From Escherichia coli (GTDB lineage: Bacteria > Pseudomonadota > Gammaproteobacteria > Enterobacterales > Enterobacteriaceae): a stretch of DNA of 64,000 nt. The DNA lies in NCBI RefSeq assembly GCF_003790525.1, contig NZ_CP033635.1; one strand, 5' to 3'. Shown in pieces: positions 42,041-48,553 of this stretch. The position numbers and the translations under genes were made by a program. The first letter of the stretch is position 1. Each line of letters begins with the position of its first letter. The notes beneath the pieces are model-generated. The model was given only the letters and a program-made list of their open reading frames with translations. It did no database searches and was not told where the DNA came from.

Positions 42041-42466
42041 TCACCGGTTCTGGTGCAGAAGTTGCAGTTGGTGCAGGGTACGGATATCCTCCCTGGCCTG
42101 TTCAATACAGGGCAGCAGTGCTGCCGAATCCGTTTTATCCTCATCGTTGTCGAAAATAATTCCGGACCCGCAGTCGATATTGTCCTGCAGCCACGCAATG
42201 AGGATATCCAGCGCTGTTTCAGTGGTTAATGGCATCACGCTCTGTATCACTGTATTGTCTTCCGGCAACTGATGAGAGCTGGCAGAAGTCGCCGGTGTTT
42301 CGGTAGCGTCACGTTCATCCACCACGCGGAGTGAATAACCGTATTCAGCGACCTTGTTAATCAGTTCAGTGAGCTCAACACCATCAATGTCAACGACAAT
42401 TCGCCCTATATTCAGTGCCTGTACGTTAACGCTGTCTGCTTCCAATGTCAGGGCCAGTTTCATCAT
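42041..42466 (-). CDS. island-associated hypothetical protein downstream of cbtA
   Basis: 141-aa acidic ORF whose start overlaps the cbtA stop. Confidence 0.5.
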
Positions 42467-42837
42467 TTCGCCTCCGGATACTTACCCAGGGTAATGTTAT
42501 TTACCGTTCTGTAATTGTCGCGGGTCATCAGGCCGGTCGCCCTGCGAGCCCGGAGGATATCGATGCTGTTTATTAACTGAGAGCGGGTACAGGCGCTGAA
42601 TCCCGGCTGGTCGGTACGTACCAGCGCGTATTTTTCCACGAGAAAGTTCACCGCATCACACAGTGAAATGCCCGCTTCAATATGCTGCTCAATCACACGT
42701 TCATCCGCGAACGGTGTGTCATTCAGCGCGAGGCCGTAGTGCTGGTCCAGTAACCGGGTGAGCAGTGTCTGCCAGATGGTGACGGGAGACGGGCAGCACG
42801 ATGCCTCCCGTACATGCGTGTCGGGTAATGTTTTCAT
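42463..42837 (-). CDS. cbtA: CbtA/YeeV-family toxin (cytoskeleton-binding toxin)
   Basis: 124 aa matching remembered YeeV/CbtA (...[86 protein letters not shown]...). Confidence 0.85.
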
Positions 42838-42926
42838 AATGAAGATTTTCCTGATATGCAGAGATAAAAAATGGGACAGTGGCGTGGTGAAAACACCAGG
42901 CCGGAGCAGAAGATTATTCTGATGAT

Positions 42927-43295
42927 TTACTTTTTCGTTTCGGGCGTCGGATAAACAGCCAGATAAACGTAACCACAGGAGCCGAGGGTGTCGGCTTCAC
43001 AGGTCAGCCCCTTCGCATACAGTGTCACGGTATGCTGATGGCGGGGATTCAGTTCACCGCTGGTGAGCATGAGCTCCAGTTGTTTCATCAGCAGCGGAAA
43101 GGCCTGGTCCGGATGGTACGCATCCGCATCTCTGAACCGGCCTCTGATACCGGCACGGTCGGCAAGGTAATGCAACCGGTTACCCTCCTGCACCAGACGT
43201 GCCCCGAAACAGGGCGTCACGGTGCAGGGCAGTCCCCACCAGAGGCGGTCGTGATTGTCGTCGTGATGCGTTGTCCCGGGGAGTGTGTCTGACAC
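42927..43295 (-). CDS. cbeA: CbeA/YeeU-family antitoxin
   Basis: matches remembered YeeU ([48 protein letters not shown]...); GTG start at 43295 preceded by GAGGA; track ORF extends further upstream. Confidence 0.8.
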
Positions 43296-43344
43296 GATAA
43301 AATCCTCACAGAAAATCGTTGAATGATAGTTTAACTTTGACAGG

Positions 43345-43989
43345 TCAGCCGGTGCGCAGACCGGCTTCGGTGAAGGTGTATTCGTTGATGAGAAGGGCCT
43401 CATCCACAGGGGCATCTGAGGTCAGCCTGTTGTGCTCGTTTTCCAGTTGACGGTACAGCCAGAAGGCCAGGTCGCGCAGGGCTTCGCTGACAGCGGCTTC
43501 CGCATCTGTTGTCATAGTCTGACCAGTCGGACTGTTCCGGGTGACGGTGATATCCATGCTGTACGGATGGCAGTAGCGTCCCCGGCGGTGGATTTCAGCC
43601 TGCAGTTGCCAGAAGTTACGCTTCTGCACCGCCTGCAGGGCATCCGCGATACGATGGAGTTCATGCTCCTGTGGGGCATACTTCCGGATTATCCGGGCTG
43701 TCGCCGGCTGCCAGTGCCAGCGTCCTTCAAAACAGGCTCCGTCCCCCTGGCTGCAGCATCCGCTGAACCAGATGCACGGCTCTTCCATAAACCTGCCGTT
43801 GCTGAGCCGGAAAACGCGCTGGCGGAGGTCAATTCCGAAAATGTCACAGACCGCCCTGAAGTCCTCATACACGTTTTCATACCAGTTGCTGTCAGCATGA
43901 TGCTGACGGTACCCGTCGCGGGCTTTTTCCCGTGCCGGGCAGGAAAGTTCATCCAGCGTATACACTGTGATGGTGATAATTCTGCTCAT
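43345..43989 (-). CDS. hypothetical Cys-rich protein (214 aa) between the DUF987 gene and cbeA
   Basis: long ORF co-directional with the operon; not a gene recalled from K-12 CP4-44/CP4-57 at this position. Confidence 0.45.
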   Translation of the reverse strand: MSRIITITVYTLDELSCPAREKARDGYRQHHADSNWYENVYEDFRAVCDIFGIDLRQRVFRLSNGRFMEEPCIWFSGCCSQGDGACFEGRWHWQPATARIIRKYAPQEHELHRIADALQAVQKRNFWQLQAEIHRRGRYCHPYSMDITVTRNSPTGQTMTTDAEAAVSEALRDLAFWLYRQLENEHNRLTSDAPVDEALLINEYTFTEAGLRTG

Positions 43990-44003
43990 CAGAATGCCCT
44001 GAC

Positions 44004-44225
44004 TCAGTTCAGGGTGACGCTCATCAGCCGGACATACGGGCCAAAACTGTCCTTACGACGTTCTGCAAACACAGCCAGCACACCGGGAATATCCTGCACT
44101 TCACGACCGGTATACGTTTCAGTGCTGCCGTGCCAGCGGTATTTGCCGGTACAGAACGGAAAAAGACGGGATGCAGGATGCTGTTGGTGAATACGCATGG
44201 CTTCACCACGGGTGATGATTTTCAT
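44004..44225 (-). CDS. yeeT: DUF987 protein (YeeT/YpjJ family)
   Basis: 73 aa (MKIITRGEAMRIHQQHPASRLFPFCTGKYRWHGS...) typical of YeeT-like island proteins. Confidence 0.75.
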   Translation of the reverse strand: MKIITRGEAMRIHQQHPASRLFPFCTGKYRWHGSTETYTGREVQDIPGVLAVFAERRKDSFGPYVRLMSVTLN

Positions 44226-44287
44226 AATGGGATACCTCTGAAGACAGAAGATAAAAGTGAAAACAGGTGTGATGTGGTTGTGACGGG

Positions 44288-44764
44288 TTAAAGCAGACCA
44301 TGTTCGGCAAAGGAGAAAACCTGGCTGCCACCGACTATCAGATGGTCCGGCACCCGGATATCCACCAGGGCCAGCGCCTGTACCAGACGTTCCGTAATAA
44401 GGCGGTCTGCCTTACTGGGTGTGACTTCACCGGACGGGTGATTGTGTGCCAGCACCACGGCAGCGGCATTGTGGTACAGGGCGCGTTTAATCACTTCCCG
44501 GGGATGGACTTCCGTGCGGTTGATGGTGCCGGTGAAGAGGGTTTCACCGGCAATCAGCTGATTCTGGTTGTTCAGATACAGCACCCGGAACTCTTCACGC
44601 TCCAGTCCCGCCATGTTCAGAATCAGCCATTCCCGTGCTGCACGGGTGGAGGTGAAGGCCACGCCGGGTTCATGAAGATGGCGGTCCAGGGCTTTCAGGG
44701 CCCGCTGAATGAGGCTGCGCTCTCTGGTTGTCATTTCTCCGGGCAGAAAGGAAATCTGTTGCAT
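44288..44764 (-). CDS. RadC-like JAB-domain protein (YeeS/YkfG/YfjY family)
   Basis: 158 aa with JAMM-like motif HNHPSG...S..D. Confidence 0.8.
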   Translation of the reverse strand: MQQISFLPGEMTTRERSLIQRALKALDRHLHEPGVAFTSTRAAREWLILNMAGLEREEFRVLYLNNQNQLIAGETLFTGTINRTEVHPREVIKRALYHNAAAVVLAHNHPSGEVTPSKADRLITERLVQALALVDIRVPDHLIVGGSQVFSFAEHGLL

Positions 44765-44779
44765 TGTTCCGGCCCCCTT

Positions 44780-45259
44780 TCAGTCAATGATGCGCATAAT
44801 GGCGCTGCATTCCGGATGCTGCAGGGCGTAATCCCGCAGACGGTAATAATGAACCGTCATGGCATAACACTCCGTACGGCAGGCGTGATGACTGTACGTC
44901 ATCAGACAGGCAGCAATGCCGGCGGCTTCCGGGCTCATTTCAGCGCGGTTACCGTTCATGGCATTGAACAGTACCCATGTTTCGTCATCATCATCATCCG
45001 GTTCGGGGGCCATAAATGCCCCGCCGTTGTTCAGGGTGTACAGATTCCAGATACCACCGCAGTAGTCTTCGCACAGACGGTCCATCCAGCCGAAGACACG
45101 GGGCTCCAGGGTCACCCACTGTGGAATGAGGCCAAAATGCTGCGGCCAGAAGCTGATGCGCTGTTCATCAGGGACGAGGCTGGCAACCAACTGAGGCGGA
45201 TTATTCTCTGGTGTTGTAGCTGAATAAATTGTGGGGGTATTCTGAGAAACGGTTTTCAT
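44780..45259 (-). CDS. antirestriction-like protein (YfjX/KlcA/ArdB-type, from memory)
   Basis: 159-aa acidic protein with motifs GGIWNLYTLNNGGAFMAP and YSHHAC seen in CP4-type island antirestriction proteins. Confidence 0.6.
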   Translation of the reverse strand: MKTVSQNTPTIYSATTPENNPPQLVASLVPDEQRISFWPQHFGLIPQWVTLEPRVFGWMDRLCEDYCGGIWNLYTLNNGGAFMAPEPDDDDDETWVLFNAMNGNRAEMSPEAAGIAACLMTYSHHACRTECYAMTVHYYRLRDYALQHPECSAIMRIID

Positions 45260-45340
45260 GAGATAACACCTTAAATAACAAATAAATGTGTGTTTTTCAG
45301 GAACGAAAGCTGAATGATTCCCTCACTCAGGGAAACGGCA

Positions 45341-46159
45341 TCAGCGCATGCTCTCCAGCAGCGTTTCTGCCATCACCCACAATGCGCGGTTGAGTTTTAT
45401 ATCGGTATCAATGCTGTGAATGGCCCGGGTATGGATACGTTTTCCTTTTGCACTGCGACCGGAAATCCCGCCTTTCAGCATATTCTCCTGGATGGTCTGA
45501 TAAGCACTCCACAGGTCCTTACCGTAATCCTCCCGGCGTCGTGGTGTCAGAATGTCGGCGGTGGTGACGGGCTGATGTTCGTCACCATAACGGTAAGTCA
45601 GTGCCGCCTGTGCCAGCGCCTGGCGTGCCGGTGGCGGCAGGACCAGCGACTGCATGGCATCACGCTTCTCCTCTATCCGGTCAAACACGCCCACCACCTC
45701 GTAAGCCCCTTCAATGACTCTGTCCACCACATTTCCCCGGTGCGGAACACGCACTTCCCCCAGAGACTGACCGCAGACGCATCCGTTCTGGCAGACGAAC
45801 CTGAAGTAACCCGGCAGCATCTGGTAGCTGGAGGTACCGTCATGGGAGTTCAGCAGGATGATTTCAGGGACATGTTGTCCGTTTATCTCCCCGTCACGGC
45901 GCAGACGCAGCATGTGTTTGGTATACCCCCGGCGGCCCGGGTCACGTACGCGGGTCTGGCAGGCGAAGAAGGGCTGAAAGCCTTCCCGCTGCAGGCTTTC
46001 CAGCACGGTGATGGTGGGGATGTATGTATAGTTCCGGCTCCGGGAGGTGTGTTTATCTTCCCCGAAAATCCCGGGCACATGGTGCATCAGCTCTTCACGG
46101 GTCAGCGGACGGTCACGGCGTATCTGGTTCGCATAACCAAAACGACTGGCTAATCGCAT
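45341..46159 (-). CDS. DUF932-family protein (YafZ/YfjQ-like)
   Basis: 272-aa ORF co-directional with the island operon; family from memory. Confidence 0.6.
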   Translation of the reverse strand: MRLASRFGYANQIRRDRPLTREELMHHVPGIFGEDKHTSRSRNYTYIPTITVLESLQREGFQPFFACQTRVRDPGRRGYTKHMLRLRRDGEINGQHVPEIILLNSHDGTSSYQMLPGYFRFVCQNGCVCGQSLGEVRVPHRGNVVDRVIEGAYEVVGVFDRIEEKRDAMQSLVLPPPARQALAQAALTYRYGDEHQPVTTADILTPRRREDYGKDLWSAYQTIQENMLKGGISGRSAKGKRIHTRAIHSIDTDIKLNRALWVMAETLLESMR

Positions 46160-46202
46160 ACTTTGCTCCTTATCAGTGGTTAAGACTGAATGACGTAATC
46201 AA

Positions 46203-46239
46203 TGAAAAAGCCGCGTCTCACGGAGAAGACGCGGCCTGA
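46203..46239 (-). terminator. Rho-independent terminator downstream of the GTPase gene
   Basis: gccgcgtct/agacgcggc hairpin followed by a T-run on the minus strand. Confidence 0.6.
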
Positions 46240-46344
46240 TGGATGAAATGAATGAGGGTTTACCGAAGCCCTTCAGCATTGTGGTGACGCAACCGGAAAT
46301 GCGTTTCCTGGTTATCGCCGGGGCCGGTCAAAAAGCGGGGACAT

Positions 46345-47229
46345 TCAGAACAGGCGATCCCACAGTGTGATCAGCAGGCGGATAATGCGATCACGGGCTT
46401 TGCGCAGAAGCTGCAGCATCCAGGCCGGAAAGCTGAACCGGGCAATGGCAGCGTCAAAACTCTGGCCGATGGCGTCACCAAAAGCCTGCTGTGCGTGTTG
46501 CTGATCCTGCGCAGTGCGCTTTTCATTCCGGATATGCGAATAAACCGCGCTGGTTGCCTGTGGTGGCAGGGCGTGGATCATCAGAGACACAAATGCCGGA
46601 AGATTCCAGCCGGCAGGAGCGGCTATGGGGAGTACCGGAAATGATGAAGGGAACAGGGTTGCCACCCGGGCTGTCACCGTCGCCAGTGAGAGTTCCTGCT
46701 GACGGGATGGCGTGCTGCTCTGGTTGTTCCATTCTTCAGCCGGGTGGATGCGATCGGCATGGCTGAGAACAAACAGAAAACGCGAGGGATCGGCACCTTC
46801 ATTCAGTAAAAACTGATGCATGGCGATGTCGGCAGCATACGCACGTTCATCAGCCCGCAGGATCCAGATAATCAGATCCAGTTCGGGCAGTAACTGACTG
46901 TAAAGTGCCCGGTATTCCTGATCATGCTGTGGTGTTTCGCCAGTGCCGGGCAGATCGACCAGCGTCATTCTTCGTTCACCGGGCTGAAAGGTAAGACGAT
47001 GAGCCTGACGGGTGCAGCCGTTCAGCGGATGCGTGGCGCAGACACGGGACTGAAAAATGGCATTGCACAGGCTGCTTTTTCCGGCACCGGATTTACCCAT
47101 AATGCCAATAACGGGTTCGTACTGAATGACGCTGCGAAGATGTTCAAGGATTTTCTGGCGAATTTCTTCAGGAAGAAAGGTCAGATGTGACTTTACGTGT
47201 GCGGAGAGGGAAGAATGGCTGAATGACAT
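46345..47229 (-). CDS. YeeP/YkfA/YfjP-family GTPase
   Basis: 294 aa with P-loop GIMGKSGAGKSS and DLPG switch motif; first gene of the minus-strand CP4-like operon. Confidence 0.8.
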   Translation of the reverse strand: MSFSHSSLSAHVKSHLTFLPEEIRQKILEHLRSVIQYEPVIGIMGKSGAGKSSLCNAIFQSRVCATHPLNGCTRQAHRLTFQPGERRMTLVDLPGTGETPQHDQEYRALYSQLLPELDLIIWILRADERAYAADIAMHQFLLNEGADPSRFLFVLSHADRIHPAEEWNNQSSTPSRQQELSLATVTARVATLFPSSFPVLPIAAPAGWNLPAFVSLMIHALPPQATSAVYSHIRNEKRTAQDQQHAQQAFGDAIGQSFDAAIARFSFPAWMLQLLRKARDRIIRLLITLWDRLF

Positions 47230-47329: not shown

Positions 47330-48553
47330 ATGGCTAAAAACAAAGGTATCTGTCGGAATAAAAAATGCAGCAATCCTGTTTCAGAATTTGATGAGGCAAA
47401 TGCCCTGAGGTTATGTGATGATCATTATCAGTTATGGAAACGAAATAAAGAGAACCGTCGGGTCAGGAATATTTGTCGTATAATCAGTAAATATGACAAA
47501 AGTCTGGACCGGGAGATATTTGACAGAGTAATAGATGCTGCAAGAAATCAAACGGGAAAGAGAATTGTTGAGGACGCAAAAATATTACATCAATTGCGCA
47601 ATTCAAAGCAAGTAAGAAAAAGTCTTCATAATGGAGTACTCCGGTCACGGGAATGGCTCAATACACAGGAGTTACTGAGAAGAAAAAATATATCTGTTAC
47701 AGGTGACTCATTTAAATCTTACATAAAGGATATTGTCAGATTATATTGCTATAAGTTTCTCTACAGCAGAGAATATCTTAATGAAAACGCATACAAAAAA
47801 CAATATCAGAGAGTTATTAACCCCAGAGAATTTAATGTTCCGATACTTCAACTTGAAGTTGCATGGATCAATAATAATTGCCGTTCAAGTGATTCAAGCT
47901 CTGATATTATCATCCTTCCCAGGATGATAAGAAGAATGGTTGTATTTAATGATACGAAGATAAATAAACAATTAGAGGAAATGTTGGGGGGGATAGCACG
48001 AAAAAAAGTCGCAGTAAGGAATAAAGGCGGTCTCTATACCAGAATAAAAAAAGAAAATGATTTTCGTTCTATGGATAGATTTATGGTGGAAATCGAAAAT
48101 ATCATAAGGCCTGAAATATTTCCGACATCAATTTACCCGCCTTTTTCACTTTCATTTATCGAGAGAGAATTGCCACTACTGAATCTGGCGCACTCACAGT
48201 ACAAAAGAGCAATAAGTAAAAAAGTGGCGAATTCAATTTTTTATACTTTGCGAAAAACTCACGTGGCATTATGGCTGCATCTTGAAATGTTTGCTCTTGT
48301 GGCATTCATCAAACTGTATACAGGAAAAGGGTTTGAATTCATGAAAAACATGTGTGTATTTATAGATTATGATAAAGGGATAATAAAATCCACGCATGAA
48401 GAACTGCTGAGTGAAATTAAGTGTAACATTCAGTTGAATTTAAAGGTGAATCCTGATAATTTTCCTGAATTAATAGAAGTATACAATTCATGCTTTAGTA
48501 AAAATATATTGTTGTATGATGTTCAGGATGATGGTTTTAAATGGTGTTTATGA
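47330..48553 (+). CDS. orphan AT-rich hypothetical protein (407 aa), Lys/Arg-rich, N-terminal C-x4-C...C-x2-H motif
   Basis: single long ORF in a visibly AT-rich tract, divergent from the GTPase gene; no recognised family. Confidence 0.6.
   Translation: MAKNKGICRNKKCSNPVSEFDEANALRLCDDHYQLWKRNKENRRVRNICRIISKYDKSLDREIFDRVIDAARNQTGKRIVEDAKILHQLRNSKQVRKSLHNGVLRSREWLNTQELLRRKNISVTGDSFKSYIKDIVRLYCYKFLYSREYLNENAYKKQYQRVINPREFNVPILQLEVAWINNNCRSSDSSSDIIILPRMIRRMVVFNDTKINKQLEEMLGGIARKKVAVRNKGGLYTRIKKENDFRSMDRFMVEIENIIRPEIFPTSIYPPFSLSFIERELPLLNLAHSQYKRAISKKVANSIFYTLRKTHVALWLHLEMFALVAFIKLYTGKGFEFMKNMCVFIDYDKGIIKSTHEELLSEIKCNIQLNLKVNPDNFPELIEVYNSCFSKNILLYDVQDDGFKWCL

Follow-up and report, generated by a model that had tools for sequence, protein, structure and literature searches.

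The gene at 43345..43989 (minus strand) of the stretch of Escherichia coli DNA analysed here (64,000 nucleotides of contig NZ_CP033635.1, assembly GCF_003790525.1; hereafter the window) is an ATG-started open reading frame of 214 aa, referred to as X, that lies between a DUF987 gene and the antitoxin gene cbeA. X is a genuine gene and not a chance ORF, and it belongs to the ordinary and catalogued gene content of these islands, as it is frequent in E. coli genomes and modules and carries the RefSeq family label DUF8835. It is under purifying selection yet dispensable in resident islands, and its absence from the corresponding K-12 island, CP4-44, is a loss by deletion and not the original state. 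The role of the family is placed here, tentatively, in the entry and establishment phase of mobile DNA, i.e., as a mobile-element establishment or anti-defence factor.

The module that holds X begins at its upstream edge with a YeeP-like GTPase gene (46345..47229, minus strand; PF01926, E 2e-14). A tightly packed, co-oriented run follows, of which the first member is a DUF932 gene (45341..46159, minus; PF06067, E 6e-52), succeeded by a KlcA/ArdB-type antirestriction gene (44780..45259, minus; PF03230, E 2.4e-37), a yeeS-like gene with a RadC-like JAB domain (44288..44764, minus; PF04002, E 5e-45) and the yeeT-like DUF987 gene, the immediate upstream neighbour of X (44004-44225, minus; PF06174, E 3.7e-39). 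Downstream of X lie cbeA, encoding a YeeU-family type IV antitoxin (42927..43295, minus; PF06154, E 5.8e-53) with 91% identity to CbeA of K-12, the toxin gene cbtA (42463..42837, minus; PF06755, E 3e-63), and a yeeW-like DUF5983_N ORF that continues in frame into a C-terminus resembling DUF957 (42041..42466, minus; PF25638, E 2.5e-27). A near-identical copy of this last ORF is given as two separate features in PGAP annotation. A DUF4942 gene recognised by Pfam (41115-41765) has the same orientation as the run. The eight Pfam families (GTPase, DUF932, Antirestrict, RadC, DUF987, CbeA, CbtA and DUF5983) are found on the minus strand from 42041-47229 in CP4-44-type order, which is also the gene order of K-12 and of other E. 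coli annotations, apart from X in K-12. In the window, the island adjoins setC, yicL and nlpA. An earlier, sequence-only reading of this DNA had placed a 214-aa ORF between the DUF987 gene and cbeA, in the same orientation, and both the ORF call and the Pfam assignments of the neighbours bear this out.

The spacing of the genes around X is close. Fourteen nucleotides separate the stop codon of the DUF987 gene from the start of X (43990..44003, minus strand), and 49 nt lie between X and cbeA (43296..43344, minus), the latter including the ribosome-binding site of cbeA (GAGGA). Another E. coli lineage has an in-frame spacer of 15 nt at this place, about 34 nt fewer than here. A 162-aa ORF with an ATG start overlaps X, but it is over-extended; the real start of cbeA is the GTG at 43295, which is preceded by the GAGGA. 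No promoter-like sites were found on the minus strand from 45310 to 42463. Terminator-like sites occur on this strand at 45330-45310, just downstream of the DUF932 gene, and at 42667-42647, inside cbtA, and none was found between these two; a scan of the module with Rfam returned no RNA element. X is probably co-transcribed with the neighbouring genes of the co-oriented run.

That X is a real gene follows from its many homologs, its substitution pattern, a confident AlphaFold2 model and a conserved alignment core. A word-indexed search returned 2,461 homologs at E≤1e-3, and an exhaustive search gave 2,967 clusters at 50% identity, almost all of about 210 aa. Pairwise dN/dS values among E. coli alleles of 91-95% identity range from 0.14-0.44, and the value against Salmonella is about 0.2. 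The AlphaFold2 model, built with 114 diverse sequences in the alignment, has a mean pLDDT of 96.2 and a pTM of 0.88. The GC content of X (57.8%; GC3 68%) is like that of cbeA, radC and the DUF932 gene, the whole window having 47.8%. X is a soluble and mildly acidic alpha/beta protein (family median pI 4.8), and the family to which it belongs is very large and uncharacterised. Searches of the PDB with X, by sequence and by profile, gave chance-level matches only. The fold is confidently predicted and has no solved relative; structure prediction and a profile search had been proposed as checks in the sequence-only reading, and gave a pLDDT of 96 and chance-level PDB matches, respectively. Longer members of the family were checked for informative domain fusions and none was found.

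The conserved core of the family consists of E14, L15, G52, the motif FSGFxSQGDGA(C/S)FEG (residues 75-89), H141, W177, Y179, L182, F206 and G210. The most conserved stretch is encoded by codons 72-89 of X (43723..43776, minus strand) and reads (C/x)IxFSGFxSQGDGA(C/S)FEG, with Q81, G82, D83, G84, A85, F87 and G89 each conserved in at least 93% of family members. His141, a candidate functional residue (codon at 43567..43569, minus strand), is kept in 95% of the family according to the same alignment. The polar residues E14, Q81, D83, H141, W177 and Y179 are near-invariant down to about 35% identity. The window allele matches 48 of the 55 consensus positions, every near-invariant polar residue among them, and departs from the consensus at the conserved positions 26 (W26G) and 78 (F78C).

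The peptide CIWFSGCCSQGDGAC, picked out in the sequence-only reading, corresponds to residues 72-86 of X and hence to part of this motif. The same reading had described the protein as Cys-rich, which holds in a weak sense for the window allele, with seven cysteines in 214 residues (3.3%, the family mean being 1.8%), and does not hold as a property of the family, in which C86 is the sole cysteine of X that is common (61%; Ser in 34%). The 'GCC' of the peptide arises from the allele-specific F78C change, 89% of the family having Phe at position 78. Since the cysteines are not conserved, metal binding through them, and a Cys-rich identity for X in general, can be ruled out.

X is widely distributed within E. 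coli. By megablast it is present, intact or partial, in 2,045 of 5,426 complete E. coli genomes (38%), and 1,942 genomes carry it at full length. In total there are 2,953 places with X, with up to eight per genome, compared with 12,918 places for the DUF987 gene and 13,159 for cbeA, and from these counts about 23% of the DUF987/cbeA modules carry X and about 77% are without it. Five copies of 91-99% identity were inspected, and each has the DUF987 gene on one side and cbeA on the other. Of the 1,942 genomes in which X is complete, 1,938 contain the junction of the DUF987 gene with X.

The gene has also been catalogued. A RefSeq CDS (WP_073313425.1), labelled as DUF8835 domain-containing, matches 645 of the 645 nt of X with 99.4% nucleotide identity, and alleles with 91.9-92.7% nucleotide identity to X bear the same label. 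These DUF8835 proteins share with X the length of 214 aa and the slot between DUF987 and cbeA, and X differs from them only by W26G and F78C. A scan of X and the other 113 aligned members against Pfam (models to 2025) gave no meaningful match, the copy used holding no DUF8835 model, and scans of X against NCBIfam (release 20) and PADLOC were likewise without a match. No paper that mentions DUF8835, or that treats X under other names, was found in a literature search. The legacy database name of X is that of an antitoxin, a name that in the literature denotes RelB proteins; in Pfam, NCBIfam and PADLOC, X matched neither a RelB model nor that of another antitoxin family. The sequence-only reading had taken X for an extra gene and had itself named routine membership of these islands, with an assigned family, as the finding that would speak against this. 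The survey of occurrence, with X in 38% of genomes, and the existing DUF8835 label show exactly such membership. X is a variable component of this island lineage, being present in about 23% of the modules, and it may have the cargo or regulatory role suggested in that reading.

The K-12 modules of CP4-44, CP4-57 and CP4-6 have the same families as the window, in the same order and orientation, and differ in being without X. As the sequence-only reading had stated, the DUF987 gene directly precedes the antitoxin gene in K-12, with gaps of 73 nt between yeeT and cbeA (CP4-44), 37 nt between ypjJ and yfjZ (CP4-57) and 18 nt between ykfH and yafW (CP4-6). The yeeT-cbeA spacer of CP4-44 retains the ribosome-binding region of X, its ATG and its first six codons. 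In this scar, positions 7042-7070 of the K-12 stretch L009 correspond to 43999-43971 of the window with 93% identity, including an exact 18-mer, CTGATGAGCAGAATTATC. The scar comprises the 14-nt DUF987-X spacer and the first 19 nt of X, after which come the final ~23 nt of the spacer between X and cbeA. Strain FDAARGOS_1266 carries X intact at the chromosomal site of CP4-44, flanked by tmaR and yeeA. A separate and clean deletion of 546 bp is found in strain W46, in which the DUF987 stop codon abuts the equivalent of 43457 and the last 37 codons of X are left. Remnants of this kind are common, as the 3′ end of X adjoining cbeA (at least 80% coverage) is found in 3,123 genomes, compared with 1,942 having the full gene.

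The scar in CP4-44, the intact locus of FDAARGOS_1266, the W46 deletion and the neighbour-like composition together show that X belonged to the operon from the start and was removed from it more than once, by at least two deletions (the K-12 type and the W46 type). The sequence-only reading had described X as inserted into the island, and the event ran the other way, CP4-44 having deleted X and kept its start codon in the scar while the FDAARGOS_1266 locus remained intact. A recent foreign insertion of X is ruled out by the same deletion scars and by a GC content like that of the neighbouring genes. With a deletion scar as its yeeT-cbeA spacer, K-12 misleads when it is taken as the reference for a 'canonical' CP4-44 module.

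In all of the enterobacterial lineages examined, X abuts CbeA/CbtA, but the order of the genes differs between them. In E. coli, including a lineage with 63% identity, the order is DUF987, X, CbeA, CbtA. The Klebsiella michiganensis type has DUF987, CbeA, X, CbtA, and Salmonella has DUF987, CbeA, CbeA, X, CbtA, where cbeA and X overlap by 4 nt (ATGA). In two of the three lineages X therefore lies between the antitoxin and the toxin genes. Direct adjacency to a toxin-antitoxin operon, or a place inside one, was thus found in E. coli, Klebsiella and Salmonella, and obligate co-occurrence of X with the pair was not (2,953 places for X, about 13,000 for each of DUF987 and cbeA). In the E. coli lineage with the 15-nt, in-frame spacer, a single change of TGA to TTA has produced X::CbeA fusions of 343 aa, which are present in several complete genomes with the exact junction RAG-L-PEDFI-VSDKL.

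These arrangements would fit a role of X, in enterobacteria, as a third component of the type IV CbeA/CbtA unit, i.e., a modulator, adaptor, sensor or second antitoxin that would be co-translated with CbeA and act on CbtA, CbeA or their cytoskeletal targets. The persistence of the fusions in complete genomes is in keeping with such a role, as are the legacy name and a Pseudosulfitobacter homolog that stands directly before a different pair, ParS/RES. We regard this explanation as the main rival of the establishment role and as less likely than it. Against it, about 77% of the E. coli DUF987-cbeA-cbtA modules do without X. CbeA and CbtA of K-12 are an experimentally characterised working pair, and this pair functions after the loss of X. 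Most of the family, moreover, occurs without CbeA/CbtA, in alphaproteobacterial ICEs and in lytic phages, and only about five of the 80 loci surveyed, almost all of them alphaproteobacterial, have a toxin-antitoxin-type gene just downstream of X.

Comparison of the proteins points the same way. Neither by sequence nor by profile does X resemble CbeA or an antitoxin family, and the possibility that it is a paralogue of CbeA was rejected, as hhalign against the CbeA alignment gave a probability of 0.3% (E 0.22) and there is no match to PF06154. An AlphaFold2 model of the natural X::CbeA fusion, made with paired rows, had a pTM of 0.61 and no confident docking of the two parts, a weak test because the CbeA alignment is shallow; pLDDT was below 50 for residues 217-275 (the linker and the start of CbeA) and reached only 50-67 over the remainder of CbeA. 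Three-gene toxin-antitoxin operons, e.g., TAC with its SecB-like chaperone, resemble the present case in that X lies between cbeA and cbtA in Klebsiella and Salmonella and is closely joined to cbeA in E. coli. They differ from it in that X is not obligatory, has no similarity to known third components, and belongs to a family of which most members are unlinked to any toxin-antitoxin pair.

Outside the enterobacteria, a search of one genome per species with the family motif as pattern found relatives in 544 stretches. The best 80 of these are almost all from Alphaproteobacteria, with 56-60% identity to X and a length of exactly 214 aa; these closest relatives outside the enterobacteria are located in the backbones of ICEs or plasmids. 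In 70 of the 78 alphaproteobacterial loci among them, a conserved gene of 138-145 aa overlaps the start of the X homolog by 8 nt, and the same overlap is seen on pCHQ1, on a Pseudosulfitobacter plasmid and in a metagenomic ICE. The small upstream protein has no match in Pfam. Downstream, 41 of the best 80 loci carry a gene of more than 1,000 aa within three genes of X, typically of about 1,450 aa and resembling an annotated strawberry-notch helicase, and after this large gene there is usually a toprim/DUF7146 gene. What stands directly after X varies, and sometimes it is an unrelated toxin-antitoxin gene (AbiEi, TacA, ParS).

The surroundings of X on mobile elements are illustrated by two plasmids. 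On pCHQ1 the run comprises ArdC, DUF2958, ParB, the upstream partner, X, strawberry notch and toprim, and then RepA, ParA, a VirD2 relaxase, TraG and Trb; X shares its strand with the relaxase and Trb genes, the relaxase being about 17 kb away, and a leading-region position of X is conjectural. The Pseudosulfitobacter plasmid has H-NS, SSB, DUF932, two RadC genes, DUF6878, the partner and X, followed by ParS/RES. No transfer genes are in view around the E. coli islands.

The family extends to phages. The profile of phrog_5162, a phage family of unknown function, matches X over its full length (E 7.8e-33; residues 2-212 of X against 2-197 of 201 positions), with the phage members being only about 30-37% identical to X. 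Structure searches of BFVD matched X to uncharacterised phage proteins, with E down to 3e-7 and TM values of about 0.6. The homologs of Pseudomonas and Acinetobacter phages are placed among many consecutive small genes that lack annotation, and those of giant Caulobacter phages inside the terminal repeats. In contrast to enterobacterial X, these lytic-phage homologs have neither CbeA nor CbtA in their vicinity.

The frequent overlap with the small upstream gene raises a further explanation, namely that X is one half of a two-gene module (enzyme and regulator, or toxin-antitoxin-like) and that in enterobacteria the original partner has disappeared or given way to another gene, so that X is now an orphan beside DUF987 or CbeA. 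The 8-nt overlap in 70 of 78 alphaproteobacterial loci would fit such a module, and in Salmonella it is cbeA that holds the overlapping upstream position. A six-frame HMM search for a partner hidden in the window or in enterobacterial loci, however, found no homolog, and profile comparison (hhalign) ruled out the partner as a homolog of CbeA or a relative of X. X is under purifying selection where the partner is missing, and no conserved partner is evident for the homologs examined in phages, all of which makes this explanation improbable.

That X in E. coli, and the window allele above all, is a decaying passenger with no current function is more improbable still, since the signs that could be taken for decay (the repeated independent deletions, the many partial remnants already described, the W26G and F78C changes at conserved positions, and dN/dS values of 0.27-0.44 for pairs with the window-allele lineage compared with 0.14-0.31 among the others) are set against an ORF that about 1,940 genomes carry intact and for which dN/dS is far below 1, that keeps 48 of 55 consensus positions, including all of the near-invariant polar residues, and that has the same length of 214 aa in E. 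coli and in Alphaproteobacteria.

A role in the establishment of incoming mobile DNA is favoured, at the tentative level stated at the outset, because of the company that the family keeps on ICEs and plasmids (KlcA/ArdB, ArdC, SSB, ParB nucleases, RadC, DUF932 and large helicases) and because of its occurrence in phages. The first-entering regions of conjugative elements have been found to hold clusters of klcA, SSB, methyltransferase and toxin-antitoxin genes together with many uncharacterised families (PMC11541004), and the gene company of X fits these published anti-defence and establishment islands of first-entering DNA (PMC11541004). According to this explanation, an ICE, plasmid or phage that enters a cell would express X early, and X would target a component of the host, its most likely nature being that of a small enzyme or of a specific ligand or protein binder, with the effect that a host defence or stress response would be blunted. 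The near-invariant SQGDGA loop (Q81, D83), together with E14 and His141, is the putative functional site. Once an island had become fixed in the chromosome, the function of X would no longer be needed, which could account for the repeated losses. The closeness of X to CbeA/CbtA in enterobacteria would then reflect a shared operon history and no shared mechanism. It should be noted that the abutment of X with CbeA/CbtA in every enterobacterial lineage examined counts against the establishment role, as a pure role of this kind does not require it.

ArdA, ArdB/KlcA, ArdC, PsiB and SSB provide the closest known parallels to an establishment factor of this type. X shares with them its genomic company, its acidic character and its occurrence on plasmids, ICEs and phages, but has no sequence or structural similarity to any of them. 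Compared with a DNA mimic, the strongly conserved polar motif of X looks more like that of an enzyme or a specific binder, and it is this near-invariance, unlike the rapid evolution of mimic inhibitors, that argues for an enzymatic or specific binding function.

As a discovery in itself, X carries little weight, being already catalogued, and its absence from K-12 being a local deletion. The interest lies in the family. DUF8835 is common to ICEs, plasmids, genomic islands and lytic phages, and is both very large and well conserved. It may represent, though we put this forward with considerable reserve, either a widespread and structurally novel entry effector that disarms a host defence or stress pathway, or a third partner that tunes the cytoskeletal toxin of the enterobacterial CbeA/CbtA unit, the latter suggested by Klebsiella and Salmonella, in which X stands after the antitoxin gene and before the toxin gene. 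Either, if true, would be the first function for a family of about 3,000 sequence clusters that has no solved structural relative. With its size and conservation, its confidently predicted fold that lacks a solved relative, its spread on mobile elements and its embedding in the CbeA/CbtA operon of enterobacteria, DUF8835 is therefore a reasonable and cheap candidate for screens of anti-defence activity or of toxin-antitoxin modulation.

The short yeeT-cbeA spacer of Escherichia coli K-12 MG1655 (yeeT being the K-12 DUF987 gene) retains the beginning of the DUF8835 gene, which occupies 43345-43989 on the minus strand of the window. In the CP4-44 island (locus L009), positions 7042-7070 of this spacer match window positions 43999-43971. 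This stretch is a deletion scar, in which the DUF8835 gene keeps its ribosome-binding region, its ATG and its six opening codons. Alignments of many other E. coli loci that lack the gene also run through the same initial ~20 nt. A different remnant is present in W46 (L108 1441-1722), where the equivalent of window 43458-44003 is missing, a 546-bp deletion after which only the final 37 codons of the gene are left, immediately 3′ of the DUF987 stop codon. This is a second loss, independent of the one that left the K-12 scar. Genomes with a remnant of the gene's 3′ end beside cbeA outnumber those with the intact gene by about 1,200. In several of the matched RefSeq genomes (H2, H3, H30, H95 and H99) the product name is misspelt as 'DUF8835 domain-containing pootine'.

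A mechanical ORF listing gives a 162-aa ATG ORF at 42927-43415 (minus strand), sharing sequence with the 3′ end of the DUF8835 gene. As a call for cbeA it is over-extended; the true start codon, with GAGGA ahead of it, is the GTG at 43295, and the resulting 122-aa product is 91% identical to K-12 CbeA. The spacer between the DUF8835 gene and cbeA is 49 nt in the window versus 15 nt, in frame, in one E. coli lineage (L092 4143-4163), and relative to that lineage the extra ~34 nt lie at about 43307-43340 (minus strand). A TGA-to-TTA change in the 15-nt-spacer lineage produces DUF8835::CbeA fusion proteins of 343 aa, and such fusions occur in several assemblies, complete genomes among them (matched proteins P0003, P0006-P0008, P0011-P0017 and others).

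In Salmonella islands, two CbeA-family genes lie in tandem 5′ of the DUF8835 gene (L041 5260-6004; L102 4293-5004); the second shares a 4-nt overlap with it, and cbtA comes next. At alphaproteobacterial loci, the upstream position is taken by a conserved family of 138-145-aa proteins (L013-L091, L007 and L008; for example, L013 2312-2728, L007 7589-8008 and L008 7592-8008), with the consensus MADYFTHFSCLLDVG...GLWGFQYANTCS...GGGAHVLDL and no match in a Pfam search. In 70 of the 78 alphaproteobacterial loci, its gene shares exactly 8 nt with the start of the DUF8835 gene, an arrangement that makes the 138-145-aa protein a likely functional partner of the DUF8835 protein. Homologs are also encoded by giant Caulobacter phages, including CcrPW, CcrBL9 and CcrSC (records H108-H127, e.g., NC_048046.1 9714-10355; L105 5001-5648), where they lie within the annotated terminal repeats, so that each phage genome has two copies.

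In the 141-aa ORF at 42041-42466 (minus strand), an N-terminal DUF5983 domain is fused in frame with a DUF957-like C-terminus. PGAP annotates the counterpart in the near-identical RefSeq copy L001 as two features, a truncated DUF5983 pseudogene and a separate DUF957 gene, an annotation that suggests an internal deletion. The DUF4942 ORF (41115-41765, minus strand) encodes 216 aa versus 277-281 aa in other islands (e.g., L001, L096 and L102), and may be truncated at its N-terminus or have an upstream stop. The gap between the genes for the YeeP-like GTPase and DUF932 holds a strong terminator-like hairpin (46208-46237, minus strand; 12-bp stem with seven GC pairs, followed by a T-run), which may split them into two transcription units. 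Divergent from the adjoining GTPase gene is a 407-aa ORF (47330-48553, plus strand), annotated only as hypothetical in RefSeq (WP_186187211.1 in L001).

In the K-12 CP4-57 island (L010 5920-6869), yfjX and yfjY are now named lfgA and lfgB. LfgB, the RadC-like JAB protein, is reported to be a protease with the antitoxin MqsA as its cleavage target (PMC10846083); on that account, the RadC gene of these modules is tied to antitoxin turnover.
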